DNA of 64,000 nucleotides, taken from the NCBI GenBank assembly GCA_964592605.1, contig CAZQFP010000001.1, positions 6,755-70,754 on the forward strand. The letters are read 5' to 3'. The stretch comes from an uncultured Clostridia bacterium. GTDB lineage: Bacteria; Bacillota; Clostridia; Christensenellales; Borkfalkiaceae. The notes beneath the pieces are model-generated. The model was not told the origin of the DNA and did not search any database. It saw nothing but the letters and a program-made list of their open reading frames with translations. The first letter of the stretch is position 1, and every line of letters begins with the position of its first letter. This document shows, one piece after another, positions 17,901 through 32,134 of this stretch. The position numbers and the translations under genes were made by a program.

Positions 17901-19473
17901 CGGCAATATAGTCGCCGTTTTCGCCGTAGCCCGAAATCATAACGTACTTATAGGTTTTTGTCTGTTCGCCCTTCAACATTTGCTCGTTGAAGTCGTACAT
18001 CTTCATATTTACGTTACTTGAATCTTCGTAGTAAATGGGTTGAGCTTTGCCGTCCGCCTGCACCGTCATATAGCGCGAAAGCTGACCGTTGATACTTGCA
18101 ACGGAAAGCGCGCCCGTAAACGTTGAAGGCGAACCTACCGTACCCGAGTCGGGACTGTCCGCACGGTTTGTACCGTATGCACTGCCGTAGCCCGAGCTGA
18201 ACTCGTTACTTGCCGCGCAAACAAGGTTTATGCCGCCGTCCCTTATTTTGCCGTAAACTTCGTTCATCCACTTGCCTTCGGTATCGCCGTCTATATCTAT
18301 GGACGAGAAACCGCCCGAAGTTCCGAGCGACATATTTATTATGTCTACGTCAAGTTTAATGCAATCTTCAAGTGCGGCAAGTATATCTTCAGTTACGGCG
18401 CCGCCCAAATCTTTGCTTTCGAAGTCGTCCGTGAACACTTTACATATTACGAGCTGAGATTCGGGAGCAACGCCGCGGAAAGTCAACGGATTGCCGTCTT
18501 TGTCCTTTGCCACTTCGCCTTCTTTATTCGTATAGCTGTCATCCTTGCCGCCTATGATGCCCGCAACGTGCGTGCCGTGCTGGGAGTACGAAGGATAAAC
18601 GTCCGCGTCATGATCGGCGTAGTCGTAGGCAAAGGGAACTTTTGCGCTTACGTATACGTCGTCCACGGTAGAATTTGTGGCTTCGACGGAAAAGTCGTTG
18701 GAATTCATTAAACTACGCACTCTTTCTTTGGTGAGCGAAACTTCTGCGGGGTCGTGGCTGAAAGCGCTGTGCGTGTAATCGAGACCGGTATCGAGTATGG
18801 CAACCACCATTCCGCGGCCGTCTATGCCCTGTTCAACGTACTTTGAAGAATTGTAAATACCTGTTGCGTATACGTTACTGGGGTTTATGGTTTCAGACTG
18901 CTGTTCGGATTCAACAGCCTGCGGGTATGCGTATGTTGAAGAATAAACCACCGATTTAACGGAGTTTATGCTCTTGATTTTTGAAACATTAGCGGCGTCA
19001 GTAGTTATAGCCACCGCGTTGGTTACGGTGTTGTAGCTGTCAATGTATTTATAGCCTATTCCCTTGCTTGTAAGCTGGGTAAAGAAGTCGCGCTGACTGC
19101 TTTCTATTGATTTCAGCGCCTTTGCGCCTGCCGAGCTTGCAACGTATTCGGTAACAGGCATACCTGCGGGAGCGCTTTCGAGTATGCTGTCCGCGTCAAG
19201 TTCGACTATGACGGTGTGCTTTCCGCTTACGTTGCTTGTGGAAGACGCCGAGCCGTCGCTTTTTAAAACGCTTGAATTGAGATTGCTTAAAGCTACGCCC
19301 TGCAAGTCGATTTGACCTGTTACGTCTTCAAACGATACGGTATCGTAATCGCGCGACGAGCCGCTTGCGCTTTTATTGTCGTCGGCAAAAGCAAGCACGT
19401 TGCCCGCTACAAACGTTGAAACCATTAACGCGCTTAAACATATACACGACGCGTTCTTTAACTTTTTAGTCAT
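11944..19473 (-). CDS. giant cell-surface subtilisin-family (S8) serine protease with PA-domain insert, Big_2-like Ig domains, long BspA-type leucine-rich-repeat region and C-terminal TM anchor (2509 aa)
   Basis: Signal peptide (..VLAFA/DD). Catalytic triad motifs are VAILDTGLDYTH (Asp, about nt 18795), SQHGTHVAGIIGG (His) and SGTSMASPNMAG (Ser, about nt 17496). PA-like insert PVIAVVQRGSNTFEDKVGVAMRNGAAAIIVYNN. Big_2-like segments (VALVKNGQIFAKSVGETTITVIG; NVASVDQNGKVT). About 25-30 repeats of the I-x-IP-x-SVT-x-IG-x-x-AF-x-x-C-x-x-L type. C-terminus is GGNCSGCG, then a TM helix, then KKRN. GGAG RBS. Confidence 0.85.
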   Translation of the reverse strand: MTKKLKNASCICLSALMVSTFVAGNVLAFADDNKSASGSSRDYDTVSFEDVTGQIDLQGVALSNLNSSVLKSDGSASSTSNVSGKHTVIVELDADSILESAPAGMPVTEYVASSAGAKALKSIESSQRDFFTQLTSKGIGYKYIDSYNTVTNAVAITTDAANVSKIKSINSVKSVVYSSTYAYPQAVESEQQSETINPSNVYATGIYNSSKYVEQGIDGRGMVVAILDTGLDYTHSAFSHDPAEVSLTKERVRSLMNSNDFSVEATNSTVDDVYVSAKVPFAYDYADHDADVYPSYSQHGTHVAGIIGGKDDSYTNKEGEVAKDKDGNPLTFRGVAPESQLVICKVFTDDFESKDLGGAVTEDILAALEDCIKLDVDIINMSLGTSGGFSSIDIDGDTEGKWMNEVYGKIRDGGINLVCAASNEFSSGYGSAYGTNRADSPDSGTVGSPSTFTGALSVASINGQLSRYMTVQADGKAQPIYYEDSSNVNMKMYDFNEQMLKGEQTKTYKYVMISGYGENGDYIAVSKEFKGEEPVIAVVQRGSNTFEDKVGVAMRNGAAAIIVYNNVAGTIRMNLGDMENPIPSASVSLDAGELLRKATNGGRVGYITLNESFQEGPFMNDYSSWGATPDLKLKPDLTAHGGEITSTVAGGYDEQSGTSMASPNMAGFAALLTSYIKTNENLVCTPDKYTELTNQILMSTATTVYDREGLPYSPRKQGAGLATLDNAFTTNAYLYTDNDDDKRPKIELGADMLKKGSNKGNGVYNMTFKVKNFGADSLTFKTQAIFFTETTALNGLAVAEKAHLFSDKGTWKVNGTALADGQTFTVSKGDTAEISVTLTLTKTEKDYLENSFVNGMYVEGFLKLIAETDGQCDLTCPFMGFYGDWGKAPMLDMDCYKKAEYDKDSQYTNLTRPQPQVWATHPYATYYNDRYTIPMGSYIYVQDENEQQIYFDAEHMAISRYNDYTDEENLGNYMTTTGLKALYTGLLRNAELVTYRLTNADTGEVIYDENGNEYRELYRVAKAFSGGGSTVPANVKLEYTPDQLGLKANGKYALEFHFYRTIEDKEAEDKMTAEEKAEYAKGNTFNMTFYVDYEAPVLIESRIKYRTSGTGANAVQTATLELDVFDNHYPQAVMLCYASEDENANADGSVVIQLATNYVTPVYNAKKNDITTVTIDITDILKSDKYKNSLYVQVTDYALNYTVYTLNMSSTNSANLPENFDIAENSKITIDKKGEKQLTLGLNEAFTVKLTGTGEADLSNFGWETGNPDVALVKNGQIFAKSVGETTITVIGKNESRKFLNVKVVEAKNTVRLNSISFEVIKNSDKGLQPAVGTVSVSAGQNFNLNVICNPWYYPADNLKLKWTSDNENVASVDQNGKVTTYDEKGNAFIKAVVLNENGTESSYSASVTLRVLDPFTITNSTLTEYNGTGGEVVLPVNENITTIGPDAFKNNKNITSIVIPETVTQIQERAFKNCTALEEVYFISKDKQPIANSKLSSILQNAFEGCTSLKLVDFSNVKTITLDKFVFKDCTALEEVRAMDNIGTMNMGAFTNCSKLEEADISGLHNSGSGSMPFNEYFCDVDENGYVTGIHSEKCGVFYGCTSLTTVTTGKYTSISDYMFYGCTSLQNVEINCARVGNYAFENCINLKTVAFGASQPNLEFYIGAFAFNNCANLNSVTFTGDKVVSLGDMAFANCPSLTTVALPNEDVAFGDGVFKNSNVTITGITTQDGALYSGTTLVLAPKTIGAGWAIKSDTTEIAPYAFSDSTLASGVTTITIPASVTKIGEGAFAYLNLQTLQLPAIAEIPNFLLYGAENITSITIPASVKVIGASAFEGCGSLATIEFAENSLLEVISDSAFKNCTSLLTVEFPAGPAVVVGESGITGGAMMGSEVFYGCFNLQSVELPSLTYLGAYTFFGCYSLTTVTFGAGSSTTGSYTFYPGNDGIGTYHSSLTSVTLGDNTLTIGASAFEACGSLVNIDLKNVVVAGAAAFKACSSLAQVTGMENLVVIGDEAFRGCSALSSLNLASAEYIGDLAFCVILDDGTTSSTRYTSVSMPKVVSIGYLAFYGGGADSVSLPASLESVGAGAFATSRLNRISIAENDKFFVENNVLYRYITSNEFELVLYPSTLTTGTYTVKDGTVAIGDYAFSGLLKSQGNSPVTKVILPYSLKTVGINAFAGSGITEYEFRSLTAPVLMEEYVDLASVYPSITGQRINTMFYYNFESRFIEYTGIVNTDLIAANKFPATLTMTYPSNGTGYNNFVYNAYFANKIVGEEILEEVTSELKQKIEALESAETVKGWASLTVNDENKAMVSAFAKEVKDAHALLNQVNDNINRGVYNSKQLELLGVENIEKLTAVETELRAIKTKFGIPTKAESLKLAEDSTHKTSYVSGEKFDMSGLKLVVVYDDFSEELADMSKIKLSAGSDGALSSLDRYVQVEGYGVKLRVNVTVSQNQGGNPNEGEEGGNCSGCGTIGSDGGFDGGFLVLLGAVGIMFAATMVAKFKKRN

Positions 19474-19572: not shown

Positions 19573-22500
19573 TTAGTTTTTAGTTATTGTCATAGGATAT
19601 TCGCTGGTTCCATAGCTCATCTCAGCCGTGTAGGTATTACCCTGCGCGTCGGTAAGCGTGAACACGAATACGAGTTTATCGACGTCTGGTTCGGGAATGG
19701 TCGTATAGCTGTAAACGGTGCCGTCGGAGCAGATAATCTGTCCCACGCCGTTGAAGTCGTAAGTTACGCCTTCATTTTCCGCGTCGTTGGAATGCACTTT
19801 ATAGAACTTGTCGGGTTTTATAAGCTCGAACCAGTTGCCGTTTAATGCGTACGCGCCGTCCTGCTTACCACTCAACGGATTGAGAACGTATTTGACAACG
19901 CCCTGCAATCTGAGCTCCACAACGCCGAATGCGTTTTCCGAATAGTCGTACTCGGTCATTTTGCCTTCAAGCCCTATAACGGTTGCCTTACCACTGCCTA
20001 CGGTGCTTACTATAAAGCCGTCCAAAACAATCTTCTGACCGTCTTCCGCCACGTACTCGCCGGCAAATTTATCAAGCGCACCCGCCTTTATGCAACGGGT
20101 GAAGCCGTAGCGCGTACTGGGTGCTTGGCAGAGAGCTATTTCCTGCTGTTTACCCGTTACTATGCTGAGTTTAATAAGGTACAGCGTTTTGCCGCCGTAT
20201 TTAAACGACATAAGGTTTTCGGACTCATAAACGAACGTTACGTTTTCACCGCAGTAAGTGCCGCTTGCCGTGCTGTCGGAACCGACTTCGCCTACGGTTA
20301 TACTGCCGCCCAAGCCGCCGATTGTCCAGCTACCCGTAAACACGTTGACTATTTTAAGGCTTGCGTCGGGTGAGCCGCTCTTTTTAAGAACGTAACCGTT
20401 TGCGTTTTTAACTATCGTTTCGCCGCTTGTAAGCGTTACGGTATTGCCGTCTGCGCTTACAGTATAGCCGCACTCGGTGGTGTTTGCACCGTTTGTTACG
20501 GTAGCCTTACCGCCGCCCGAAAGCAAGCCGTAGCCGTTAAACGCGTAAACGTTGCCGCCGTTATCGGAAAGTTTAACGTTGCGCCATGTATCGTAGTGGT
20601 GCATTACGAAGTTATCTCCGCCGCCCGTTACCGTTACAGTATCGTTTGCGGGGCTGTATACTATGCTGTAAGTAGTACCGTTGTATTCGAACGAACCGTT
20701 GAAGCCAGTGCCATCAACGGTATAGGGTATATATTCGCCGGAAATTATCACCGTACCTTCCACGGCAATTCCCGTAGCCTGGCTTGCGCTGAGTGAATAT
20801 GCGCCGAAGCCGTCGAACGTTACGATACCGAACTTCGTGCTAAGCCATTCGCCCCTGAAATTATCGTACAGACAGAACGCCGCATTCGACAACGCACCGC
20901 CGTCTTTAATTGAATAAATTTGACCCGAAAGCGTAAGTTTTTGCAAATCGAAACCGAGCTGAGCATACATATCGCTGTCAAGGAAAATGCGCACGTAGCT
21001 GTTTTCGCCCTGCTTAACGTTTTCGTACTTCATTTCCATAGGTTGCGTAAGATAGGTGCTTGAAAGCGTTACCGTTCCGTAGCCGTCCTTGCCTATGCCG
21101 TTGAATTTAAGAGTTATCGATTCTTCGTAGAACATCTTCCACTCGCCCACGTTGCTGTTTTCGCGGTAGAAGGTCTTTTGAACGGAATTTGCAGTTACTT
21201 GCAGATAGCCGTTTTCGTCAAACTGTGCACTGCCGCAAACCGCATTACTGCCGTTATATAGCGTAACTACGCCGCCTGCAACGGTATAAGTGCCGTTCGA
21301 AGTCGAAACTTCTTTTACGGAATTTGTGCCGCCGACTTTTTCGTATTCAAAACTTGTGTATTTCCAGGTGTTTTTGCCGTCGAATTCGTAAAGTTCGTGC
21401 GCGGAAGCCGCGGTTTCCCAAACGCCTTCGAATGCGTCGTATGCCGTATACGTCGTACCGTTTACCGTAACGGTATCGGTGCCGAACGTAGCCGCAATAC
21501 CGTTTATTAAAAGGTTGGTGCCGTTGAACATATAGGTTACCGAATTGCCGTTATACTCTGCAGTACCGTCGGAGTTGAGAACCAAATTTTGATTACCCGA
21601 ATAGTACTTGCCGTAAGTTAAACCTTCAATCTTCTTTACGCCGTTGAGCGTTGCCGTCTGCGTATAGCTCTGGTTGTCGTACATTTTTATAAGGTTGCCG
21701 TCAACCGTTGCCTTGCCCGCATACAAAGCTCCGCCCGTAACAAACAGGGGACATCCGTAAAGTGTGATATACGTGCCGTCGTAAGCGTAATACGAAAGGT
21801 TCTGTGCCGCGCCGCTTGCGTACAACAACGAGCCGTCCGCTTTAAGTTCGATATAAGTTCCGCTACCTTGAACGGAAGTTTTAACGTAGTACACGCCTGC
21901 AATCTGGGAATAATCCGCAAACCCGACGTAGAGTTCTTCGCCCGTAGGCACGTACGCCGCGGGCGCCTTATAGTAATTTTCGCCGTCCTTCAAATAATAG
22001 CCGTACGATAATTCACCGTTCTTTGCTATATATTCTTCAACGCCGTTCGAAGCATACCAAAGCGACAGCGGCTGATATTTATTGAGTGTAAATGAAGCGG
22101 CATTGCCGTTCGCGCCGTTCATTTCAAGCACGTTCAAAGTTACGCTCTTTACTGCGCTTATACCCTGCTTAGCCACGGGATATGTGCCGCCGAACGTCCA
22201 ATCGGCTTCACTGAAGCCGAGAGTATTTTTAAGCGCTTCCGCACTTGTAAAATCAACACCCGAATTTTTTGCAAAGTTATTTAAAGCAAGGCCGGCAACC
22301 GATTCAACTCTGCCGCTGTCAGCGGGCCGTATTCCGCCGACTATATCGCCCCTGTGCGCATAGCTTGCACCTGCCGTTGCGTTTGCGTTAACCGTTGCAA
22401 CCGAGAAACAGTCCTTAACTATGCTGTCGCTATATACGTAACCGGCAACGCCGCCGGCATACGAACTTAAGCTGTCCGCAGTGCTGCCCGCAACAAAACT

Positions 22501-24000
22501 CGTACGGTTGTACGCGCTTACTGAAGAAGCCGAGCAATAACTCTTTTGAAGAGATGCGAAACTGTCAAGGAAACCGACGAGTCCGCCAGCATAAATAGCG
22601 CCGTTAATACTGCCGGAAGCCGCACTGTTAATTACCATTGCGGGAGCAGTTTCCGACATACCGCTCATTGCGCCGACAATTCCGCCCGCCGCAAACAGTC
22701 TGCCCGATCTGCCGTTGATGGCAACGTTAGACATACAGCCGCTAATCTGGGAAACGTGCTTATACTGTTCGTCAGCGTAATACGCCTGGTCAAAACCGAC
22801 AAGTCCGCCCGCATAGCCGCCTTCGCTCGAGTCGGCGTCCACGGTTATTTTTCCGCTTGCGGTGCAACCGCTGATTTCGGTACCCATTGCGTAGCCGATA
22901 AGTCCGCCCGCATAGAAACCGCTACGGTATTTTGCGGCGTCAACCACTATTTCGTAGTTCTCAAGATTTAAGTCCTTGATTACGCAGGGTGTCAACGAAA
23001 TTTCGCCGGTTTTCGTACGCTCGAGATTAGGACTTGTTCTGCCGAAAAGTCCGATGTATTTAACGAAAACGTCCGTAAAGCCGGACTGTTCTATTAAAGT
23101 GTCTTCCAACACGAAGTTGCTTATTTTGTGCCCGTTGCCAAGGAAAGTTCCGCTGAAATATGCAGTTTCCGTAGTTCCGTCGCCGATAATGTAAAGCTGT
23201 TCGCCCTTCATATCGATGTCGTTTTCAAGGCTGTAATACGCGCCGTTGTAAAGACCGCCATAGTAACTGTCGTTCACGATATCGGCAAGCAGGTACAAAT
23301 CCATTGCTTCCCTTATACGGTAGGGATTCTCGTAAGAGCCGTCGCCGTCTTCTCTTTGTCCGAAGTTTTTCTTAAGTTCAAGACCGGTAACGGTTATGTT
23401 CGTGTCGCGTATGGGCGAGATAGAATAAACGGTTTTGCCGCCTATTTCTTCCCCGATAAGCACCATATCGTTTGCAAGTACGGTGTAGGGATTTTCCTTA
23501 TCAACGTCGTAGTAGACGCTTATATCGATAGTGAACTTGATTTCGGTGCCCGATTCAACGTTAAGATTGTCAAGCTCGTTGCCGTCCAAATCCAAATAAT
23601 TAAGGCGGTTTTCAACCAAAGTATTGTCCGCGCCGGTGAATATTTTCAGGAAGGAAACTTTGTAAGAGCCGGACGTTGAAACGCCGCCAACCGTTACGTT
23701 GCTGTCTTCTTTCATTACGAACGAATAGGTGCCGTCAGCGTTCTTTGTAAGCGTTTGACCGTTGACTTTAACCTGCGCATCGTCCTTGCCCTGCAACTGG
23801 TCGCTGAATTCCGCGGTAAACACAACGGTGTAGCCGTCCTTTACTTCCGCACCGCTTTCAATTCCGTTAAAGTCGAAAGTTACTCCTTCGATATTTTCGT
23901 AAGTGAGTTTATAATACGCAGGGGTACCACAGCCGACAAGCGCGCAAATCGCGCAGGCTATGCTTATCATTCCCAATAAAACAGTTAAAAACTTTTTCAT
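19573..24000 (-). CDS. giant surface lipoprotein with GLUG-motif repeats (1475 aa)
   Basis: Lipobox ALVGC-GT. Repeated GGL(I/V)G motifs (YAGGLIGYAMG, GYAGGLVGF, AAGGIVGA, YAGGLVGF, YAGGVAGY) are typical of GLUG-motif domains. The remainder is Gly/Tyr/Thr-rich and looks beta-rich. I prefer the ATG at 24000 (GGAAGG RBS 7 nt upstream) over the TTG at 24003. Confidence 0.7.
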   Translation of the reverse strand: MKKFLTVLLGMISIACAICALVGCGTPAYYKLTYENIEGVTFDFNGIESGAEVKDGYTVVFTAEFSDQLQGKDDAQVKVNGQTLTKNADGTYSFVMKEDSNVTVGGVSTSGSYKVSFLKIFTGADNTLVENRLNYLDLDGNELDNLNVESGTEIKFTIDISVYYDVDKENPYTVLANDMVLIGEEIGGKTVYSISPIRDTNITVTGLELKKNFGQREDGDGSYENPYRIREAMDLYLLADIVNDSYYGGLYNGAYYSLENDIDMKGEQLYIIGDGTTETAYFSGTFLGNGHKISNFVLEDTLIEQSGFTDVFVKYIGLFGRTSPNLERTKTGEISLTPCVIKDLNLENYEIVVDAAKYRSGFYAGGLIGYAMGTEISGCTASGKITVDADSSEGGYAGGLVGFDQAYYADEQYKHVSQISGCMSNVAINGRSGRLFAAGGIVGAMSGMSETAPAMVINSAASGSINGAIYAGGLVGFLDSFASLQKSYCSASSVSAYNRTSFVAGSTADSLSSYAGGVAGYVYSDSIVKDCFSVATVNANATAGASYAHRGDIVGGIRPADSGRVESVAGLALNNFAKNSGVDFTSAEALKNTLGFSEADWTFGGTYPVAKQGISAVKSVTLNVLEMNGANGNAASFTLNKYQPLSLWYASNGVEEYIAKNGELSYGYYLKDGENYYKAPAAYVPTGEELYVGFADYSQIAGVYYVKTSVQGSGTYIELKADGSLLYASGAAQNLSYYAYDGTYITLYGCPLFVTGGALYAGKATVDGNLIKMYDNQSYTQTATLNGVKKIEGLTYGKYYSGNQNLVLNSDGTAEYNGNSVTYMFNGTNLLINGIAATFGTDTVTVNGTTYTAYDAFEGVWETAASAHELYEFDGKNTWKYTSFEYEKVGGTNSVKEVSTSNGTYTVAGGVVTLYNGSNAVCGSAQFDENGYLQVTANSVQKTFYRENSNVGEWKMFYEESITLKFNGIGKDGYGTVTLSSTYLTQPMEMKYENVKQGENSYVRIFLDSDMYAQLGFDLQKLTLSGQIYSIKDGGALSNAAFCLYDNFRGEWLSTKFGIVTFDGFGAYSLSASQATGIAVEGTVIISGEYIPYTVDGTGFNGSFEYNGTTYSIVYSPANDTVTVTGGGDNFVMHHYDTWRNVKLSDNGGNVYAFNGYGLLSGGGKATVTNGANTTECGYTVSADGNTVTLTSGETIVKNANGYVLKKSGSPDASLKIVNVFTGSWTIGGLGGSITVGEVGSDSTASGTYCGENVTFVYESENLMSFKYGGKTLYLIKLSIVTGKQQEIALCQAPSTRYGFTRCIKAGALDKFAGEYVAEDGQKIVLDGFIVSTVGSGKATVIGLEGKMTEYDYSENAFGVVELRLQGVVKYVLNPLSGKQDGAYALNGNWFELIKPDKFYKVHSNDAENEGVTYDFNGVGQIICSDGTVYSYTTIPEPDVDKLVFVFTLTDAQGNTYTAEMSYGTSEYPMTITKN

Positions 24001-24090
24001 CAAAATACCTTCCTGTGAACGCGTTTACAGGCTCCTTTTTTCAAGGTTCAGCCGCAAACAAGCTATATGTCCCATAATAATAGCCTTAAC

Positions 24091-24119
24091 ATTATACAAT
24101 ATAGTAAACAAAAATTCAA
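24091..24119 (-). promoter_or_regulatory. candidate sigma-A promoter of the surface-protein/Opp locus
   Basis: On the minus strand: TTGAAT (24119-24114), 17 nt, TATAAT (24096-24091), about 90 nt upstream of the start codon at 24000. Confidence 0.4.
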
Positions 24120-24425
24120 CTGATTTCCAATCGTTTAATAATTATAAGTATGCGCATTTTTATAGCGGTAATAAGCACAGATTATACCCCAATTAACGTA
24201 TATCCTTCGTTTTTGTCGTTTTCCGCAATAAAACAAGCAATTTTTTGTCAAAAACGGATAAAAACGCATCAGTTTTAAAACTTTTTATAAGAAAATCTTT
24301 TTAAAATAATATGCCGTCCGCAAAATAATCGTAATATTTTTGTATGCATAATTTTTGTATAATTTTATATTTTAACCATTGCAACAGGCTAAAAAACTGT
24401 TTTTTTGTCCTTTACTAAGAAAAGC

Positions 24426-24452
24426 GGCGCAAGCGTTTAAAGCGCTTGCGCC
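24426..24452. terminator. second (outer) hairpin closing array A; bidirectional terminator-like
   Basis: GGCGCAAGCG / CGCTTGCGCC 10-bp stem, followed by T-rich runs on both strands. It occupies the same position as hairpin 32091-32117 of array B but has an unrelated sequence. Confidence 0.6.
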
Positions 24453-24467
24453 TGATTTTAATTTTAA

Positions 24468-24739
24468 GCCCCCGAAAGGGGGCGACCTGCCCGCTTAGAA
24501 ATAAGCTAATGCGGGTAAAAGCGCGGCTATTCCACGCCGTTACCGCAAGGACGGTCCAGTTCGCCATGCATCAAAGCAAGGCAGGACAAAGTTCCCTTCA
24601 ACTCATAACAATTCTGTTACGTATTCCTTGAAATACGCAATACCGGTAAACCTGCTTTTTTCTTGTCATACTGAGCCTTGGCGAAGTATCTCGTGAGATT
24701 CTTCACTACGTTCAGAATGACATTCACAGGTGAGTTCAT
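24468..24739 (-). ncRNA. conserved structured RNA-like segment ('scaffold') terminating cassette array A; class not recognised
   Basis: Reverse complement of 31861-32072 with roughly 85% identity by eye outside indels. It shares the same series of hairpins, with compensatory or loop-restricted differences. It ends (minus strand) in GCCCCC-UUUC-GGGGGC plus a U/A-rich tract (24468-24483). It carries a 73-nt insertion in the first hairpin loop. Confidence 0.55.
24664..24722. repeat. MITE-like imperfect palindrome (TGTCATxCTGAG...GAAG-ATCTC / GAGATTCTTC...CAGAATGACA) inserted in scaffold A
   Basis: Left arm TGTCATACTGAGCCTTGGCGAAGTATCTC and right arm GAGATTCTTCACTACGTTCAGAATGACA are inverted copies. 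Absent from the otherwise collinear scaffold B. Same family as 42170-42248 and the half-copies listed below. Confidence 0.7.
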
Positions 24740-24911
24740 GCGCGGGCCGCACCGAATACCAACGGAAATCATCGCCCTGGCTAGTAGCACCAGACTGAGA
24801 AACTGCAAGTGTAAGGTTTGTATGTTCGTGGTAGCCGGAGCGCAGCGGTGCGTAAAAATAAAAAAACTTTGCCCTTTTGCACATTTTAACATATTAAGCC
24901 GTATGTTACAA
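24740..24911 (-). repeat. cassette unit A1 (promoter + leader box + invariant 18-mer + variable core + invariant 14-mer)
   Basis: Minus strand: TTGTAA (24911-24906), 17 nt, TAAAAT (24888-24883), AGGGCAAA box, T-run, GCACCGCTGCGCTCCGGC (24852-24834), 80-nt core (24833-24754), GGTGCGGCCCGCGC (24753-24740). Confidence 0.75.
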
Positions 24912-24926
24912 CTAAACCGAGTTGGA

Positions 24927-25096
24927 GCGCGGGCCGCACCGTGTACCAGCGGTCAGACCTACCATTGCCCATACCGCCATCGACGTAGAGAATGTAAGCA
25001 TTTCTCGTGTCGCCGTAGGCGCCGGAGCGCAGCGGTGCGAAAAATAAAACTTTTGCCCTATATGCGCATTTTAACATATTAAGTTGGTCGTTGCAA
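24927..25096 (-). repeat. cassette unit A2
   Basis: Minus strand: TTGCAA (25096-25091), 17 nt, TAAAAT (25073-25068), AGGGCAAA, T-run, 18-mer (25039-25021), 80-nt core (25020-24941), 14-mer (24940-24927). Confidence 0.75.
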
Positions 25097-25111
25097 CTAA
25101 CCTGAGTTGGA

Positions 25112-25260
25112 GCGCGGGCCGCACCGATAGCCAATCAGTAACGTCGTGCCCGTAAAGATAGCCCGAAACACGGAAACTGAAACACTGCCGCGTGCCGCCA
25201 CGGTCGCCGGAGCGCAGCGGTGCGTAAAATAAAAAACTTTACCCTTCTACGAGTGTTTAA
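25112..25260 (-). repeat. cassette unit A3 (promoter-proximal unit, degenerate -10)
   Basis: Minus strand: TTAAAC instead of TAAAAT (25260-25255), AGGGTAAA, T-run, 18-mer (25224-25206), 80-nt core (25205-25126), 14-mer (25125-25112). Confidence 0.65.
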
Positions 25261-25448
25261 CCCAAATAGAATACACCTAAAAGCAATGTTTTTGCCTATC
25301 TCGGCGTTAAACTCGCTTGTCGTAGCACGCAGGCACGGCAAGAGGCGTTTTGGGTGTATTGACCGTGATTTTTCCGTAAAAATGTATTTTATATGGAGTT
25401 ATACACTCGTCCTAATTATAGCAAAGGGCAATTTTATTTGCAAACTTT

Positions 25449-25745
25449 TTATACGTTGGATTTTAATGCACTTTTCTGTTTTTTGTAGGTGGAATTGGCT
25501 TCGTCAATAAGATTTTTATTGGCGGGCTTAGGTTCGTAGTAGCCGCGTGTGTTCATCTGCGTATATATCGAATACTGGTTTTCGGCAACGCCCAAAAGAT
25601 TTGTAGAAAAATTTTTGCGCATAGATTTGGTGCTACCTTCAAACAGCGCGGTCGTATAAAGAGCCATAAGCTGTTTTTCGGATTCAAGCATATCCTGAAG
25701 CGCGTCCTTTTCGTTTAACATGCAATCGCTTTTTGTAAGTTTCAT
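25449..25745 (-). CDS. spore coat protein, CotF-like (coat F domain)
   Basis: 98 aa. The pattern LNEKDALQDMLESEKQLMALYTTALFEGSTKSMRKNF...AENQYSIY matches my memory of the coat-F-domain family. The start follows 2 nt after the upstream small gene. Confidence 0.65.
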   Translation of the reverse strand: MKLTKSDCMLNEKDALQDMLESEKQLMALYTTALFEGSTKSMRKNFSTNLLGVAENQYSIYTQMNTRGYYEPKPANKNLIDEANSTYKKQKSALKSNV

Positions 25746-25747
25746 TT

Positions 25748-25936
25748 TCAGCCCCCCAAAACGTTTAAAAGCGCGTTATAACGCTGTTCGTGTTCGTCCG
25801 CAATTTTCGTCATACATTCGGCAAGTTCCATATCGGTAAGTGTTTTCGAATACGCCCTTGCCTTTTTGCAGATAAGACCTTCGGCGCAAAGCGCGTCGGA
25901 GATGAGTTCAAGTTCCTTTGAAGTTATGTCCTGCAT
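25748..25936 (-). CDS. small hypothetical protein (62 aa), co-transcribed with the CotF-like gene
   Basis: GGAGG RBS 7 nt upstream of the ATG. Helical-looking sequence with conserved-looking Cys/Glu positions. No function recognised. Confidence 0.55.
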   Translation of the reverse strand: MQDITSKELELISDALCAEGLICKKARAYSKTLTDMELAECMTKIADEHEQRYNALLNVLGG

Positions 25937-26004
25937 AAAAAATACCTCCGCATAATGTTTTGACTTATGCGAAGGTTTTTATTCGGAAATTGAATTTATT
26001 TAGT

Positions 26005-26835
26005 TTACTGCTTTTTTTCGCCGCCGAATATATCGGCTTCGGATACGCTGTGCGCCGAAATTATCTGATAGTACGGGTCGGAAGAAAAATCGCGCTGTTT
26101 TGTGTACTCGCCGCCGAGAGCTTCGATAGCGTATTTAAGTTCCTGATACTCGATAAACGGAATATTCTCTTCGTCTATTTTGTCTAAAAGATATTTCAGC
26201 GCGCGCTCGTCGCCGTAGGACGCAAGATAGCTTGCGTGCATGGGAACGTTTTCTATATCGCCGCGGAATTCGCTGAGCAAAATTTCGAAAACCTTGTCGT
26301 TTTTTACTACCGAACGCGACATTATTTCAAGCATATATTCCCTGTCAACGCCCTTAGAATAATTTTCAAGCGCTTCACTAATTACAAGGTCGGCTTTTTC
26401 CTTTATGAAGTCCACGCACCTGTTTTTCATATCTTCGTCGTCGGTGGAAACGAGTATGGTCATATACTTTTTTATAGCCTTGTCGTCAGCGCCTATTAAA
26501 TTCATTGCATACTCGCGCTCGGCTTCCGTGCCGTCTAAAAGCGGCATAAGTTTTTCCACTTCGGCTTTGCTCTCTATTGCTTCGCACAAGAATTCGGAAA
26601 CGGGGATTTCCTGCTTAATATGTGCCCGCAAACACTTAATAAGCTCGTCGCCGTCCATTTCGCCGTAGTACTCGCGCGGGGTTTTTCCAAGCGACTTTAT
26701 AGTGGTGTCGCCGAAGCGTTGATAAAGCTGGGGAATTACGTCTTCCCATTCGCTTTCGTTGTATTTTTCGGAATTCTTCTTGACGTATTCGGCGAGCTTT
26801 TCGTCGAACATACCGTCGAAATCGTACAGTTTCAT
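26005..26835 (-). CDS. hypothetical protein (276 aa), helical-repeat-like
   Basis: I prefer the start at ATG 26835 (MKLYDFDGMF...). It has a GGAGAA RBS and an ATGA overlap with the stop of the upstream TPR gene. The ORF-track start at 26949 would add an Arg-rich 38-aa extension overlapping that gene by 118 nt. Confidence 0.6.
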   Translation of the reverse strand: MKLYDFDGMFDEKLAEYVKKNSEKYNESEWEDVIPQLYQRFGDTTIKSLGKTPREYYGEMDGDELIKCLRAHIKQEIPVSEFLCEAIESKAEVEKLMPLLDGTEAEREYAMNLIGADDKAIKKYMTILVSTDDEDMKNRCVDFIKEKADLVISEALENYSKGVDREYMLEIMSRSVVKNDKVFEILLSEFRGDIENVPMHASYLASYGDERALKYLLDKIDEENIPFIEYQELKYAIEALGGEYTKQRDFSSDPYYQIISAHSVSEADIFGGEKKQ

Positions 26836-28490
26836 ATTTTCTCCGTAATTTTTTGAACGCGCTCTTCTTCTATATCGAAAAACGCGCATACTCCGCCTTC
26901 TGCAACGACGGCTTCCTTTACGCCCGACCGCATAAATATTGCGGCGCAAAGCGCGTCCACGTCCTTAGCCGCATCCAGCCGCCCATCGTTTTTCAACTCG
27001 TCGTAAATGCTTTCCGCGGCAATCGCAAACGCCTTGCCGTGCTCGTCGTCGAGTATCGAAAAATGCGCAATGAGCCGCGCATATGCCTGAACGAAGCACT
27101 TTTTTTTGTTTTTGCCGAGTGCAAGCTGTTGCATTGTAACGCGCTTATAAACGTTGCATATAACCACGCCGAAGCTATCAAAACGGTTGCGCTCCGCAAG
27201 CGCGGTTAAAACGTCTATTTTAAGTTGGTCTTCCAAAAACGCGTTTAAAAGAATATCGCGCACGATACCGTCAAGTTCCGCCTTCACTGCAACCTGCGCC
27301 GCAAGGTATTGCAACTCGCCGCCGCCCTTGCCTTCGCACTCGTCAAAGCACCACAGCACGCACGACGACAAATCCAGCTCGGACGAAAGTTTTTGCGCCG
27401 CACCCTGCGAAAGCCGCATATATGCCGCAAGCATTTTAAGTGAAGATTCGCGTATGCGTTGCGGAAGTCTGTAAAAATAGCTTAACTCGGCTATATCACC
27501 GCTCTTAACCATAGCGCGCGCCGCATTATAGTAAAACCGCGCGGTTACCGCTTCGGGGTAAATTGTAACTATATCGTCGAAAGCCGAAAAGCTGTCTTCG
27601 TACTTTCCGCAGTTGAACGCCGACACCGCCTTAAAGTACAAAACGGTTAAATCGTATGCGTAATCTTCCGAAAGTTTGCAAAACATCGAGTACGCTTCGG
27701 CGTGCAGTTTGTTCTCGCAACATACCGTGGCTATTTTATAAATTTCGTCGGGGTTGTCAAGGTCGAGTGAAAGCAACTTTTTTGCAAGTTGCAACGCTTC
27801 GTCGCTTTTACCCGCTTCGGTCTTTACCGCGGCAAGCGTAGTAAGCGCCTGAACGTCGTCGGGACGCTTTTTCAAAATGTTTTCGCACTCGGCTTCGGCT
27901 TCTTCAATTTTGTCGGAAATAATATTGCACATCGCAATATAGTTGCGGGCGGACGAATATTTTTCGTTGCCTTCGCCCACCTTTGCAAACTCTTCCGCCG
28001 CCGCTTCGTACTCGCCGTTTTTCATGCGCGAAATGCCTTCCGAAATAATGTCCGAACAGTCTGCAAGCGCGGGCGGGTATACGAATTTTAAGGGATTTTT
28101 ACTTGTGGTTAAAAAATCGCGTGCTATCTCTTCGCGCATTTCGCCGTCTATCTCGTTGCACTCGAAAAGCAGCTTATTGTAGTAGTAAGCCGAAAAGTGT
28201 TCCGCGCCCAAATTCATATAGCTTACCGCAAGCCCTTCGTAGCATTCGGACATATCGCTCGGCGCGGCAAAGTCCATATACCTGAACCAGCCGTTAACGC
28301 ACTTTTCGTACAGCCCCAAATCGTCGAAAATTTCGGCGTAAAGCATATACGAATCTTCGTCGTTAAAGCCCAGTTGCGCGTTCTTGTTCAGCATTTTAAG
28401 CGCGCCTATAAAGTTGTGGTCTTCGACCATGTCGGCGGCCATGCCTATAAGCCTGTCCGCGCCAAGGTCTATCTTCAATGTTTTAGCCAT
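26832..28490 (-). CDS. TPR-repeat protein (552 aa)
   Basis: Multiple 34-aa-like helical repeats with small and aromatic positions (e.g. ALQLAKKLLSLDLDNPDEIY, AYSMFCKLSEDYAYD, YYNKLLFE). Function not assignable. Confidence 0.55.
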   Translation of the reverse strand: MAKTLKIDLGADRLIGMAADMVEDHNFIGALKMLNKNAQLGFNDEDSYMLYAEIFDDLGLYEKCVNGWFRYMDFAAPSDMSECYEGLAVSYMNLGAEHFSAYYYNKLLFECNEIDGEMREEIARDFLTTSKNPLKFVYPPALADCSDIISEGISRMKNGEYEAAAEEFAKVGEGNEKYSSARNYIAMCNIISDKIEEAEAECENILKKRPDDVQALTTLAAVKTEAGKSDEALQLAKKLLSLDLDNPDEIYKIATVCCENKLHAEAYSMFCKLSEDYAYDLTVLYFKAVSAFNCGKYEDSFSAFDDIVTIYPEAVTARFYYNAARAMVKSGDIAELSYFYRLPQRIRESSLKMLAAYMRLSQGAAQKLSSELDLSSCVLWCFDECEGKGGGELQYLAAQVAVKAELDGIVRDILLNAFLEDQLKIDVLTALAERNRFDSFGVVICNVYKRVTMQQLALGKNKKKCFVQAYARLIAHFSILDDEHGKAFAIAAESIYDELKNDGRLDAAKDVDALCAAIFMRSGVKEAVVAEGGVCAFFDIEEERVQKITEKI

Positions 28491-28510
28491 GTTATCGTAA
28501 GATATTATTT

Positions 28511-29329
28511 TTAAAAGAGTTTTAAAACGTCTTCTTCAAAAAAATCGTAATCGGTGTTGCAATAATGGCAGTGAACGCTCACTTTTCCGCGTTCGACTAC
28601 TATATTCAAAAGCTCCGCCTTGCCAAGGGGAAGTATTACCCCTTCTATTTTTTTGCGCGAACAGTTGCATTTATATTCGGGAAACGAAAGATACGAGCCA
28701 TATTTTAAAGTTTCTTCGGCAAAGTACCCGTTAATAATTCCTTCCGCGCCCAGTTTTGAAAGCACGCTAACCACGTCGGAAAAGTTCTGCATAGCGTCTT
28801 CGGCTTTGCGCATATTCTCTTCCTTAGCGCCTGGCATAAGCTGCATAACCACGCCGCCCGCGCAAACGCATTTTCCGCCCTGCATTTTTACGCCTATCGC
28901 AACGGCGGTATCAATCTGCTCGCTCTTAAAAAAATACTGCATTAAATTTTCGGAAACGTCGCAAGACTTCAACTCGCACGTTCCAGTAAACGGTCTGAAA
29001 AAGCCGTCGTCCTTAATTACGGTCATAGTGCCGCCGGCAAGTCCGCCGTCCGCTCCGTCTATATACCCGCGTATATGCCCCGAACTGTCGCCCGAAACGC
29101 TTACGGTTGCGCTTCCGTCGCCTGACTTTACAGTCAGCGAAACGGCTCCCTTTTCACTCTTCAAACAGCCTGCCATATAAGCGCATGCAGTAAGCATACC
29201 GCCCAGTATTTCCGCGCCCTTTTCGTCGAGATTGTGTATTTTTATAGCGTCGTTTACCATGTCCGTCGTTTCCAGTACGGAAAGCGAAACGTCCATTCCG
29301 TAAACAAGCGCCTTATACAGTTTGTTCAT
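28511..29329 (-). CDS. hslO: Hsp33 family redox-regulated chaperone
   Basis: 272 aa, the typical Hsp33 length, with the C-terminal zinc centre C-x-C (YKCNCSRKKIE) ... C-x-x-C (VHCHYCNTDYDF). Confidence 0.8.
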   Translation of the reverse strand: MNKLYKALVYGMDVSLSVLETTDMVNDAIKIHNLDEKGAEILGGMLTACAYMAGCLKSEKGAVSLTVKSGDGSATVSVSGDSSGHIRGYIDGADGGLAGGTMTVIKDDGFFRPFTGTCELKSCDVSENLMQYFFKSEQIDTAVAIGVKMQGGKCVCAGGVVMQLMPGAKEENMRKAEDAMQNFSDVVSVLSKLGAEGIINGYFAEETLKYGSYLSFPEYKCNCSRKKIEGVILPLGKAELLNIVVERGKVSVHCHYCNTDYDFFEEDVLKLF

Positions 29330-29397
29330 TATATGATTACCCTAACCTTAAATTCAAGCGGCAATTTTTGCATAAATCAATACGCACCGGCAACGTT

Positions 29398-30141
29398 TTA
29401 ATCTTTGCGGCAGATAAAGTTAATTCTCTGTTCCTTGCTACCGCCAAGGTGCCCTTCGGTTTGCGCCGTAAAGCCTGCCGCGTTCAAAGCCGCCAAAATT
29501 TCGTTTTCCCCGTATATATATTGCGTTTGACGCTCGTCCGAGCGCGTGTAATCTCCGTCCGTCCTGCGCGAAAACACGGTAATTTCCATATCAACACAGT
29601 CTTCTTTCAGCGTGTTAAACCACATGTACGAAAGCTCTTCCCTGTCTTCGCAAAATACGTTTGAACCGATGATATGTTTGAGTTTATACTCCGAACTTAT
29701 ATCGAATATAAACGCGCCGCCCTTTTTCAAACTTGCGTAAATCCTTTTAAAAGTTTGGCACAGCTTGTCTTTGGGAACGTAATTTATACAGTCGTTTACG
29801 GCGGTTATAAAATCGCACTTAAAGTCGAGCTTCAGCTTTGTTACGTCCTGCAATAAAAACTGCGCCGCAACGCCTTCGCTCCTTGCAATTTCCACAGCCC
29901 TATTCAGCATTTGCGGCGATATATCTGCGCCCCAAACGTCAAAACCCGCCTTATAGAGCGCGCGAGTAAAATAGCCGTTTCCGCACCCTATATCAACTCC
30001 GCGCGCGCCGCTTTTTAAGCCCAACGCGCGTAGCGTTTCAATTAAATACTGCGACCATTTTTCATAGCCGCAGTCGTCGTTTAAATATTCAAAAACCGAG
30101 CCGAGCGCGGAATACGCTCCCGAATACTCTTCATTTTTCAT
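29398..30141 (-). CDS. class I SAM-dependent methyltransferase
   Basis: Motif I VDIGCGNGYFT, motif post-I GADISPQML, and motif II-like FITAVNDCINY. ATGA overlap with the upstream gene. Confidence 0.75.
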   Translation of the reverse strand: MKNEEYSGAYSALGSVFEYLNDDCGYEKWSQYLIETLRALGLKSGARGVDIGCGNGYFTRALYKAGFDVWGADISPQMLNRAVEIARSEGVAAQFLLQDVTKLKLDFKCDFITAVNDCINYVPKDKLCQTFKRIYASLKKGGAFIFDISSEYKLKHIIGSNVFCEDREELSYMWFNTLKEDCVDMEITVFSRRTDGDYTRSDERQTQYIYGENEILAALNAAGFTAQTEGHLGGSKEQRINFICRKD

Positions 30142-31388
30142 TTCAATAAATTGTCCGAACTTATCTTTTTAGCCTTTTTGCCTTTCTTGCCGGTGGACTG
30201 CAACGCCTTTTCACGTTCGGCAAACAGCTTGTTGTACTCCACGTAAACGGGATCGTTTTTGTGTTCTTCTTCATAGCCGCTTATATCTGCCGAAAGTTTG
30301 GCTCTGTCCGCATCGGCGCGTGCAAGGTCTGCGCGGTTAAAAGTGAGCGAAGGAGTTTTAACAGCCGCTTCCGCCGCAATGGGCATTATAGGGCGGGCAA
30401 TCAGCTCGCTTTTGCCTGCGGCAAGCAGTTCCATTGCCGCTTTTTTGTCGCTTTCCTGTTTTTCAATAGCAAGTTCCTTTTCGCTCTTTTTGGAATTTGC
30501 ATCTTCCTGCGCCGCTTTTATGTTGGGCGTTACGTACAAATCGAAGCCCCACTGCGTGAACGAAAGCCAGCACATAAGCATAAACGAGAAGCCTATGAAT
30601 ATGAAAATTATCATAGCTATCGTTTCCGCAAAGCCGCCTATAAGATAAATCCATATGGGAATAAGCGAGAAACCCGCCATAAGCACGGTCTGCAAGGGTG
30701 TGCCCAAAATCATAACGAATGCGTTTTTGAAAAGCTGACCGAACTTAACGCGGTAACTGTTACCTACCGCAAACAGCCAGCCGCAGTAAACGCCCACGAT
30801 TACCGTGGCGATTATTACGAAAATCTGCGCCGTAATTGCGCCGGCTACGTTCCCGCCGGTTGCCGCAACAACGTCCTTCCAGTCGCCGATAACAACTGAT
30901 GCGAATACGAAAATCAAGAGAATAGTAACAGGCAAAACCGTTGAAAAATAACCGACTTTTATGCCGTGGAAAAAGTTTTTCAGCTTAAATTCGCCGTGCG
31001 TGTAAAGCATTTTGCGTATACAGTAAGTCGCACCAGATATGCCTATGGAAGCAATAAAGCCGGCAACCAGCAAAAGCGAATAGAACAAAAGGTCGGCGGA
31101 AAGTCTTACGCTTTCACTCCAGCCCTGAATATTGGGGTCGAAGGTTATAGCTATACTGGAATTGCCGGGACCAAGCGTTTCCATACCGCTTATATACGCA
31201 CCGCGGAAAACCATTACGGCGACGCCGGGAACTACCGTTATAAGAACAAAAATGTTCAGCAAAATAAGTTTAAAGAAATTAGACTTAAATATGGACCAAG
31301 TTTCGCCCCATCTGCCGCGAGTGGCAGGTTTTCTTATAAAGTCGTCGGCAAGTTCGTTGCCTTCGAGACCGCTTACATTTATAGCCAT
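30138..31388 (-). CDS. polytopic membrane protein (YesL/DUF624-like N-terminal domain) with Lys/Glu/Ala-rich C-terminal tail
   Basis: AGGGGAA RBS. The N-terminal WSIFKSNFFKLILLNIFVLITVVPG segment and about 6 TM helices resemble the DUF624 family as I remember it. The last ~130 aa are charged and coiled-coil-like. Confidence 0.45.
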   Translation of the reverse strand: MAINVSGLEGNELADDFIRKPATRGRWGETWSIFKSNFFKLILLNIFVLITVVPGVAVMVFRGAYISGMETLGPGNSSIAITFDPNIQGWSESVRLSADLLFYSLLLVAGFIASIGISGATYCIRKMLYTHGEFKLKNFFHGIKVGYFSTVLPVTILLIFVFASVVIGDWKDVVAATGGNVAGAITAQIFVIIATVIVGVYCGWLFAVGNSYRVKFGQLFKNAFVMILGTPLQTVLMAGFSLIPIWIYLIGGFAETIAMIIFIFIGFSFMLMCWLSFTQWGFDLYVTPNIKAAQEDANSKKSEKELAIEKQESDKKAAMELLAAGKSELIARPIMPIAAEAAVKTPSLTFNRADLARADADRAKLSADISGYEEEHKNDPVYVEYNKLFAEREKALQSTGKKGKKAKKISSDNLLK

Positions 31389-31514
31389 AAAAATTCCCCT
31401 GAATGTAGGATTGCTTGTATTATTCTATCATATAATAACGAATAATTCAACTGTTTTTTAAGTCATTTACGCATTTGTTTAAGCCGAAAAATGCTACCGC
31501 AAACCCCAAAACGC

Positions 31515-31682
31515 TTGCAAGTTTTTTATTGCACCGTTAAAATGCGCTTATAGGGCAAAAGTTTTTTATTTTCGCACCGCTGCGCTCCTGCTCAGACTAC
31601 GGTACAAGCGTTGGCTTTACTCTGTCAGATGCCGGTCTCAGTTACACTTTGGTAGTCGATTGGCTAGCGGTGCGGCCCGCGC
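31515..31682 (+). repeat. cassette unit B1
   Basis: TTGCAA (31515-31520), 17 nt, TAAAAT (31538-31543), AGGGCAAA, T-run, GCACCGCTGCGCTCCTGC (31574-31591, one G>T), 77-nt core (31592-31668), GGTGCGGCCCGCGC (31669-31682). The promoter spacer contains GTTTTTTATTGCACCG, a vestige of a further unit. Confidence 0.75.
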
Positions 31683-31692
31683 TTCAACTTAA

Positions 31693-31860
31693 TTGCTTTT
31701 TTATATCTCACATGCTAAAATGTGCGAAAGGGCAAACGTTTTTATTTTGCACCGCTGCGCTCCGGCTACTTTTACTATGCTGGCAATGCTTACAACCTTA
31801 CGGTAGGTGGTAGCCTTAACACTGACATCACTGCTTATTGGTTCTCGGTGCGGCCCGCGC
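31693..31860 (+). repeat. cassette unit B2
   Basis: TTGCTT (31693-31698), 17 nt, TAAAAT (31716-31721), AGGGCAAA, T-run, 18-mer (31749-31766), 80-nt core (31767-31846), 14-mer (31847-31860). Confidence 0.75.
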
Positions 31861-32072: not shown

Positions 32073-32090
32073 TTAAATTTAAAAATAAAA

Positions 32091-32117
32091 GCGGCGTGTG
32101 CTTAAAGCTCACGCCGC
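32091..32117. terminator. second (outer) hairpin closing array B; also the terminator of the convergent gene 32135..33004
   Basis: GCGGCGTG / CACGCCGC stem. TTTGTT follows on the plus strand and TTTTATTTTT on the minus strand. It lies 18 nt from the stop of the minus-strand membrane-protein gene. Confidence 0.7.
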
Positions 32118-32134
32118 TTTGTTCATTTAAAAAA

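Follow-up and report, generated by a model that had tools for sequence, protein, structure and literature searches.

The cassette arrays and their units

We analysed a 64,000-nucleotide stretch of DNA from an uncultured Clostridia bacterium (assembly GCA_964592605.1, contig CAZQFP010000001.1), hereafter the window, which contains two arrays of tandem cassettes related to the template repeats of diversity-generating retroelements (DGRs), reverse-transcriptase systems that alter the binding tip of lectin-like surface proteins. The arrays are recognizable by an 18-mer, CGCACCGCTGCGCTCCGG, present in five copies in the window (chance expectation, 0.1): three on the minus strand at 24835, 25022 and 25207, belonging to units A1, A2 and A3, and two on the plus strand at 31573 and 31748, belonging to units B1 and B2, with one mismatch each. 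A 14-mer, GGTGCGGCCCGCGC, lies 81 nt past each 18-mer (78 nt in B1), and neither sequence has a further copy in the 64 kb. Array A consists of three units (24740–25260, minus strand) and array B of two (31573–31860, plus strand), 6.3 kb away on the opposite strand. An initial annotation, made from the letters alone, had assigned all five units to 24740–25260, which is correct for A1–A3 but not for B1 and B2. It had also described the 18-mer and 14-mer as unchanged except for a G>T in the B1 18-mer; to this mismatch a second one has to be added, a C>T at base 1 of the B2 18-mer. The units recur every 185, 187 and 175 nt, none of which is divisible by three; given these periods and the stops between units, a long repeat protein was rejected as a reading.

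Judged from their sequence, the units share one plan: a predicted sigma-70-like promoter (in most units), a short 5′ leader with the AGGGCAAAG box, the 18-mer (the 5′ homology block), an 81-nt core and the GC-rich 14-mer (the 3′ block), to which CUUCAACUC or AACUC is appended. Promoter-like sites above the scan threshold (TTGCAA or TTGTAA, 17 nt, TAAAAT) were found in A2, A1 and B1; the B2 site, TTGCTT-17-TAAAAT, falls under this threshold and was read by eye, and the site of A3 is weak. The promoter hexamers are kept while the spacer sequence around them differs from unit to unit. Every unit has its own leader, and all units of one array share one tail. A nhmmer unit profile matches A3 (25250–25108) and also A2, B1 and B2, with no further unit elsewhere in the window. 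The units are composed as follows.

25112–25300, minus strand: unit A3, with a weak promoter-like region, leader box AGGGTAAAG, 18-mer (25207–25224), 81-nt core (25126–25206) and GC-rich 14-mer (25112–25125).
24927–25111, minus strand: unit A2, beginning with the 3′ flank of A3, TCCAACTCAGG, followed by the putative promoter TTGCAA-17-TAAAAT (25096–25068), leader box AGGGCAAAAG (25050–25059), 18-mer (25022–25039), core (24941–25021) and 14-mer (24927–24940).
24727–24926, minus strand: unit A1, the last of array A, with the putative promoter TTGTAA-17-TAAAAT (24911–24883), leader box AGGGCAAAG (24867–24875), 18-mer (24835–24852), core (24754–24834), 14-mer (24740–24753) and a variant 3′ flank, ATGAACTCACCTG.
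31515–31692, plus strand: unit B1, with the putative promoter TTGCAA-17-TAAAAT (31515–31543), leader box AGGGCAAAAG (31552–31561), 18-mer with G>T (31573–31590), 78-nt core (31591–31668), 14-mer (31669–31682) and 3′ flank TTCAACTT.
31693–31873, plus strand: unit B2, the last of array B, with the promoter-like site TTGCTT-17-TAAAAT (31693–31721), leader box AGGGCAAACG (31729–31738), 18-mer (31748–31765), core (31766–31846), 14-mer (31847–31860) and flank ATGAACTCACCTG.

A structured tail ends each array

The key to the identity of the cassettes is a structured tail that ends each array and that the initial annotation had missed. These tails, the ~200 nt past each array, are more than 90% identical between A and B, and a nhmmer tail profile recovers them with E = 5e-42 (tail A) and E = 8e-44 (tail B). 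Tail B folds with a z-score of −5.9 relative to shuffled sequence. Among related loci collected from public assemblies (L-numbers; proteins are given P-numbers), the sequence after the canonical template repeats in L047, L062, L116 and L003 is homologous to the tails, and tail A corresponds to the segment downstream of a template repeat (Sp-like). Rfam has no match in the window at gathering thresholds, and 24000–32500 gave only chance-level matches up to E = 5. The following elements make up the array ends.

24480–24661, minus strand: tail A, a predicted structured RNA scaffold with P1, P2, GAGTTGAAG, the stop strand GGGAACTTTGTCCT and a 3′ domain.
24662–24726, minus strand: a miniature inverted-repeat element, GTCATTCTGAACGTAGTGAAGAATC..., forming a 65-nt insert in the loop of the first tail A hairpin (CACCTG...CAGG).
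24426–24452, minus strand: intrinsic terminator hairpin of array A, bidirectional.
31861–32075, plus strand: tail B, with P1 (CACCTG...CAGG), P2 (31893–31918), GAGTTGAAG (31930–31938), the stop strand GGGAACTTTGTCCT (31938–31951), a 3′ domain and, at 32056–32072, a GC hairpin.
32088–32122, plus strand: a terminator hairpin, AAAGCGGCGTGTGC...GCTCACGCCGCTTT, read from the sequence past tail B; the minimum-free-energy fold includes it.

The inverted-repeat element is outside the cassette system. An alignment shows that array B lacks it, the window holds no other copy, and in L001 the same element occupies the same loop. Copies of the form GTCATTCTGAACGYAGTGAAGAATC ... GCTCAGTGTGACA are found, besides window positions 24662–24726, in L001 (~413–500 and 588–690) and in L120 (~2000–2070), so that insertions lie in tail hairpin loops and between units of several independent arrays. 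The element may prefer tail hairpins or may merely be tolerated there.

Leaders and flanks are complementary to the tail

For the two window arrays and eight relatives, ten sequences in all, we aligned the stretch from leader to tail end; the relatives are L001, L002, two arrays of L003 and L008 and, as the remaining four, canonical template repeats. From this alignment RNAalifold recovers a long-range leader–tail helix, P1 and P2 just after the template, and the 3′ domain. In the long-range helix, the leader AGGGCAAA box is predicted to pair with the tail segment GGGAACUUUGUCCU. Over the whole structure, pairing holds in 93% of cells, compared with 42–49% when the partners are slid by 1–3 columns, and compensatory changes occur in 33 of 49 pairs; none of 500 shuffles reached the observed values. 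Seven of the 14 pairs in the leader–tail helix show compensatory changes, and P1, P2 and the 3′ domain covary too. The AGGGCAAA box, already recognized in the initial annotation as conserved at the nucleotide level, is therefore best described as the 5′ strand of an RNA helix, and its reading phase shifts between units.

This covariation extends across clades. The L003 arrays pair leader UUAUCGCUC with tail GAGCGAUAG, and the Asn-rich template on the same contig pairs CUGUCGUCC with GGACGACAG instead. In all arrays examined, the leader of each unit is complementary to the tail of its own array, with predicted duplex energies of −21.5 kcal/mol for A1 and −13.6 kcal/mol for A3 (−8.6 for shuffles of the latter). 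The 3′ flanks of the units are in turn complementary to GAGUUGAAG (GAG(U/A)UGAAG), which lies directly 5′ of the tail segment GGGAACUUUGUCCU; in B1 and in the internal units of L120 this match is 9 nt long, CUUCAACU(C/U). Such RNA pairing of the flanks accounts for the contrast between a variable core and a box, 18-mer and 14-mer that do not change at the nucleotide level.

In the cryo-EM structure of the DGR RNA of Bordetella phage BPP-1, a template:primer duplex lies 2 nt from an upstream:spacer duplex, named “cPRT Stop”; both duplexes are required for cis-primed reverse transcription, and of the 278 DGRs with Avd that were examined there, 207 have predicted duplexes of the cPRT Stop type (10.1101/2023.10.23.563531). 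By analogy, the predicted geometry of the leader–tail and flank–tail pairings matches these cPRT Stop and template:primer duplexes. The arrays share with DGRs both an upstream:downstream duplex of this type and stem-loops downstream of the template.

A side observation concerns the flanks of canonical systems. In L047 (7515–7700) and L116 (minus strand, 2184–2330), the template 3′ flank, CTTCA-CTCG, corresponds to the variable-region flank, CTTCAYCTCR, with one nucleotide missing. The variable-region flank of L047 shows perfect complementarity to the tail segment GAGAUGAAG. This one-nucleotide difference may define the initiation of mutagenic homing sequence (IMH) versus IMH* in this clade.

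Related loci place the cassettes among DGR template repeats

A profile built from the five cassette peptides was searched against 1.8 billion representative proteins. It retrieved 32 short open reading frame (ORF) calls, each with one, two or three modules in tandem that follow the pattern (W/A)LRSG-27 residues-VRPAL. Many of them are Asn-rich, a hallmark of DGR templates; two further proteins from this search, P0006 and P0009, were set aside as unrelated repeat proteins. In L003 and L008, the latter from a Christensenella metagenome-assembled genome, genes for an RVT_1 reverse transcriptase (RT) and bAvd are directly followed by arrays of four to five units and a tail, and L003 additionally contains a single Asn-rich unit with its own tail. 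L002 comprises the 3′ end of an Avd gene, six units and a tail. Together with L062 and L047, these loci associate the module with RT and Avd, and a CRISPR-like array, integron attC sites and a shufflon were dropped as readings given this context.

The link to a target gene is provided by L047, a canonical DGR in which a template repeat and tail are paired with a variable region inside a long ORF. Template adenines account for every mismatch between the two (11 of 11 in the delimited core), bar one in the 3′ GC block, and the variable region is followed by a GC hairpin. L116, L102, and L115 paired with L062, are DGRs similar to L047. In the L047, L116 and L102 proteins, matches to DUF6273 (PF19789) end at the variable region, and P0002 has a faint match to the same family. 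DUF6273 is reported to be a C-lectin-like DGR target domain with its variable region at the C-terminus (PMC11792537, PMC10743442). A profile of the window cassettes aligns to the L047 variable region with an hhalign probability of 93.6%, and the module forms the last quarter of the 172-position domain, corresponding to the variable region of a C-lectin-type target domain. The 40-residue window peptides alone have no Pfam match because they are too short. The initial annotation had pointed to the last strands of a C-type-lectin-fold module, a fold class that DGRs diversify; this was right in kind, although none of the families that it had named (FGE-sulfatase, DUF1566, FISUMP) is the matching one.

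At least three diverged clades have this architecture; the periods are ~185, 158 and 183 nt, and leader and tail covary in each clade. By three tests, namely RNA architecture, homology to canonical template repeats and the target domain, the cassettes belong to the world of DGR templates. It is well supported that each cassette is a non-translated module of the DGR template-repeat type, a copy of the DNA for the last ~40 residues (the variable tip) of a DUF6273 C-lectin-like domain. The idea in the initial annotation that the cassettes are coding modules kept open for use elsewhere, and not small genes, gains support from this assignment, since it fits a DGR template repeat, which duplicates the coding sequence of a variable region without being translated and acts by way of RNA and cDNA.

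Several features of these loci deserve separate mention. In the Christensenella loci (L003, 2130–4309; L008, minus strand, locus positions 1–2480), several successive arrays follow RT-Avd. The first three L003 units are mutually in frame, so that an ORF caller reads them as one repeat protein of 189 residues (P0010); artefacts of the same type are behind other “hypothetical proteins” of public databases in the profile list. P0020, by comparison, is a genuine multi-DUF6273 protein. In L116 (7901–8000, minus-strand view), a masked run of N lies directly upstream of a tail 3′ end (...AAAGCGGTTGAGT), ahead of the canonical template, and a second tail or array is therefore probably present beside the template repeat.

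The cores keep one reading frame open

When the 18-mer is read as GCA-CCG-CTG-CGC-TCC-GGC, all five window units are stop-free. The five core translations of the initial annotation could be reproduced, including their VRPA(L/H)(Q/E)L ends; internal units end in VRPALQL, and the unit that closes each array ends in VRPAHEL. The annotation was likewise right about the Gly and Trp shared by all five and about the synonymous GGT/GGC and ACA/ACG codons. The open frame itself holds in five of five units, but as an argument it carries less weight than it was given, because frame +1 and one antisense frame are each open in three of the five as well. We therefore rely on 13 window-type units (from the window, L001, L120, L121 and L122) that were collected from DNA and are free of selection by ORF calling. 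Among these homologous cassettes the frame is open in all 13, and each of the other five frames contains stops in 6 to 13 of them, which establishes a real coding-frame signal. Third codon positions in the 13 units are C or T in 70% and A in 10% of cases.

This signal had been interpreted as selection at the protein level, a view that is sustained in part: the frame signal holds, and some of the evidence is a by-product of DGR template design. DGR templates use AAY codons, which adenine changes cannot turn into stops, so that open frames and fixed framework residues are no proof of current selection; the framework residues Gly, Trp, Thr and Leu are coded largely without adenines. At the same time, the cores differ at nearly every position, including positions beyond the reach of adenine mutagenesis, and four Asn-rich L002 units differ by synonymous AAC/AAT changes. 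From these sequence comparisons, some purifying selection on coding content or template quality appears likely.

Ordinary translation in place finds no support, in agreement with the initial annotation: starts are inconsistent, none of the five units has a Shine–Dalgarno sequence, and the combination of a start codon and a ribosome-binding site in every member, as expected for small genes, is absent from the five window units.

Template use and alternative interpretations

With moderate confidence, we interpret the arrays as DGR template-type modules that are used in trans as alternative non-translated templates. Stable alternative templates are favoured by three observations: the stability of units between strains, the unchanged B1 and the template-like context. 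Across RT-Avd, L003 and L008 share 99.0% identity; the five units common to both are 96–100% identical, with only one of six differences at an A, and the arrays differ by gain, loss or replacement of whole units. The B1 sequence is identical in an independent Logan assembly (SRR13282553). The context of the units comprises a promoter (in most of them), a leader paired with the tail and a 3′ flank of the template type, and it lacks the variable-region hairpin: array units of L002, L003 and L008 carry the template-type flank CTTCACTCG without the GC hairpin of in-gene variable regions, which in L047 and L116 are followed by hairpins of the CTGCCGCC...GGCGGCAG type. This template-like context is combined with variable-region-like content. 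For instance, all window units keep the GC block GCGGCCCGCGC without interruption, as do the variable regions of L047 and L116, whereas the templates of these two loci have a T within it.

A number of observations weigh against use as templates. The adenine fraction of the cores is 0.12–0.24 (0.13–0.23 in the window units), compared with 0.29–0.42 in canonical templates and 0.12–0.29 in protein variable regions; such cores would be poor diversifiers and fit acceptors or burnt-out templates equally well. Of the two properties of a template, richness in adenine and invariance between strains, the window units fall short of canonical templates in the former, and the latter is supported by one strain pair and one second sample. 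L003 array units differ from the local template at 58–81% of adenines versus 25–57% of other bases, which suggests that adenine mutagenesis once acted on them. A tblastn search of the 64-kb window with the L003 RT and Avd gave nothing better than E = 4, and the window contains neither an Asn-rich master template nor a DUF6273 target gene; with enzyme, master template and target all absent from it, use in trans is assumed. No protein variable region was found that matches an array cassette with differences only at cassette adenines. Finally, internal units lie 185–370 nt from the tail and known DGR cDNAs are short, so that an internal unit could be copied only if the units downstream of it were looped out.

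The same adenine-poor cores could mean that the units are not templates at all but non-coding, variable-region-like acceptors, copies of the template gene into which the DGR itself retrohomes, such that their diversity would be its output (a sink, buffer or sandbox) and not its input. Core adenine within the range of protein variable regions, the enrichment of L003 mismatches at template adenines, the third-position bias expected of mutagenized AAY codons and the uninterrupted GC block all fit this idea, as does a better match of internal window-type units than of the last unit to tail GAGUUGAAG. We nevertheless regard it as unlikely. Non-adenine positions of the L003 units also differ from the local template at the considerable rate given above, the L003/L008 shared units are nearly identical and differ without adenine bias, and B1 is unchanged in the second sample. 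The window units lie outside long ORFs, and internal units lack the GC hairpin that follows true variable regions. No adenine-only template/variable pair exists among the window units and none of them is plausible as a template for the others, since differences are spread over all bases; the last unit was specifically rejected on this ground as a template for the internal units of its own array. An acceptor would, moreover, have no evident use for its own promoter and tail-complementary leader. If instead the arrays were inert by-products, that is, duplicates from unequal recombination that were scrambled by self-targeting and drift and orphaned after the DGR had moved or been lost, their flanks would seem conserved merely because the core mutates much faster, and targeted hypermutation could have diversified the cores before the flanks had time to change. 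The orphan state of the window arrays, mobile-element insertions in the tails of array A and L001 and between L120 units, and unit numbers that differ between near-identical strains are compatible with such decay, which we likewise judge improbable: the architecture is maintained in the diverged clades with leader–tail covariation, promoter hexamers are kept amid differing sequence, all 13 cores are open despite differences that adenine mutagenesis cannot cause, and the AAC/AAT synonyms of L002 point to purifying selection for template function. The insertions themselves lie in hairpin loops, where structured RNAs tolerate inserts. Far less probable still are small translated proteins or peptides of ~45–60 residues. 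ORF callers do annotate such peptides in public assemblies, and A1 and A2 have an in-frame ATG and B2 a GTG; all of these starts, however, overlap promoter sequence (the −10 hexamer or the spacer). In A3 and B1 the frame contains a stop and lacks a start codon, Shine–Dalgarno sequences are missing and the leader box changes phase. A peptide equal to the last quarter of a domain would not fold alone, and the flanks are accounted for as RNA helices.

Proposed mechanism

Under the favoured interpretation as alternative templates, transcripts would start at the unit promoters and end at the tail, which would be bound by a DGR reverse transcriptase and Avd encoded outside the window. The tail would pair with the leader and flank of one unit, with downstream units looped out, and the core of that unit would be copied into cDNA, which in turn would replace the variable region in a gene for a DUF6273-type surface protein at another locus. 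Homology arms would be provided by the 18-mer and 14-mer, and the expected layout of the target is ...CTGCGCTCCGG-~81 nt-GGTGCGGCCCGCGC. The adenine-poor and mutually different cores would make the arrays a small library of pre-diversified templates instead of one Asn-rich master. Translation signals would be absent because the cassettes are never translated in place, and template origin and use would explain why the frame is open, why Gly, Trp, Thr and Leu are conserved and why the flanks are fixed. More tentatively, and with less than even confidence, we suggest retroelement-driven cassette switching, in which promoted, pre-diversified tandem templates on one RT-binding scaffold re-install stored variants of the binding site, with light adenine mutagenesis, in a lectin-like surface protein. 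An origin of the arrays by cDNA insertion was rejected: a cDNA stopped at the leader duplex would lack the ~43 nt of promoter that precede the leader within the repeat unit.

Comparison with known systems

The closest counterparts are canonical DGR template repeats, such as the BPP-1 avd-TR-Sp RNA and those of Clostridia and Faecalibacterium phage DGRs with DUF6273 targets. They share with the cassettes the untranslated copy of a variable region, the GC-rich 3′ block, upstream–spacer pairing (cPRT Stop), downstream stem-loops and the C-lectin-like DUF6273 target fold. Canonical systems have one Asn-rich template per scaffold, whereas the window arrays contain several adenine-poor cassettes that differ at all positions, with a promoter in most units and a leader in every unit, and with no RT, Avd or target within 64 kb. 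The silent cassettes of Borrelia vls and Neisseria pilS resemble the arrays in being tandem, untranslated, stop-free segments bounded by short conserved repeats that could serve as homology arms. Unlike them, the window arrays have promoters in most units and a structured RNA end of the retroelement type, so that transfer would go via RNA and cDNA and not via DNA recombination. CRISPR arrays show the same alternation of conserved (~100 nt here) and variable (81 nt) parts and a similar gain and loss of units between strains; in the window arrays, by contrast, the conserved part is far longer and promoter-bearing, the variable part is of fixed length, in frame and homologous to a protein domain, and cas genes are absent. 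DRT2 defence RTs likewise use an RNA without translation signals whose coding information takes effect after reverse transcription. DRT2 builds a new concatemeric gene by rolling-circle reverse transcription, whereas the cassettes concern the variable region of an existing domain, with a DGR-type RT and Avd in relatives.

Genomic surroundings and searches for further arrays

The arrays point outwards and flank six ordinary genes, among them those for Hsp33, a methyltransferase, a TPR protein and a Coat F protein; Pfam matches on the neighbouring genes are all of the housekeeping kind. With their identical unit flanks, the arrays (24400–25300, minus; 31500–32125, plus) form mutual inverted repeats around a 6.2-kb block, and recombination between them could invert this gene block. 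Downstream of array A, also on the minus strand, two very large surface proteins are predicted (11944–19473 and 19573–24003), one of 2509 residues with subtilase S8, PA, Big_2 and six BspA-type LRR_5 regions, and the other a 1476-residue lipoprotein with a GLUG motif; the cassette module is absent from both. A 314-residue ORF (26005–26949, minus) with a TTG start and an Arg-rich beginning overlaps the gene of a 552-residue TPR protein (26832–28490, minus) by 118 nt, and its true start is probably an internal ATG (MKLYDFDG...).

An exact two-anchor DNA scan of GTDB genomes gave zero matches, which places the source species outside the GTDB representatives. A looser scan returned mostly chance matches in high-GC genomes and yielded L008, L047, L062, L102, L115 and L116. 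The JGI metagenome scan produced two chance matches only, viral scans found canonical DGRs and no arrays, and a word-based protein search gave a single match, P0001. In look-ups via neighbouring window proteins, contigs end at or before the arrays, except for L129, which covers B1. Logan runs SRR13282553, SRR9122728 and SRR9130365 contain the same organism.

Implications

In the standard picture of DGRs, a single invariant, adenine-rich template serves to rewrite one variable region or a few. In open-access DGR surveys and recent preprints we found no account of diverged template-type cassettes that stand in tandem, have promoters and leaders of their own and share one scaffold, nor of orphan arrays or of tandem arrays of non-coding templates or variable regions. 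DGR finders that demand adenine-only mismatches or an adjacent reverse transcriptase miss or reject such arrays, and in public databases they appear, mislabelled by ORF callers, as dozens of small hypothetical proteins. The covarying leader–tail and flank–tail pairings provide a testable RNA model for this DGR clade, which could also serve multiplexed template design for DGR-based mutagenesis tools. If the proposed use of the arrays is correct, it would join the logic of antigenic variation from silent cassettes to mutagenic retrohoming, with arrays acting in trans far from the enzyme genes. The host would then hold a heritable repertoire of alternative templates, and the sequence space within its reach would extend beyond the adenine positions of a single template.

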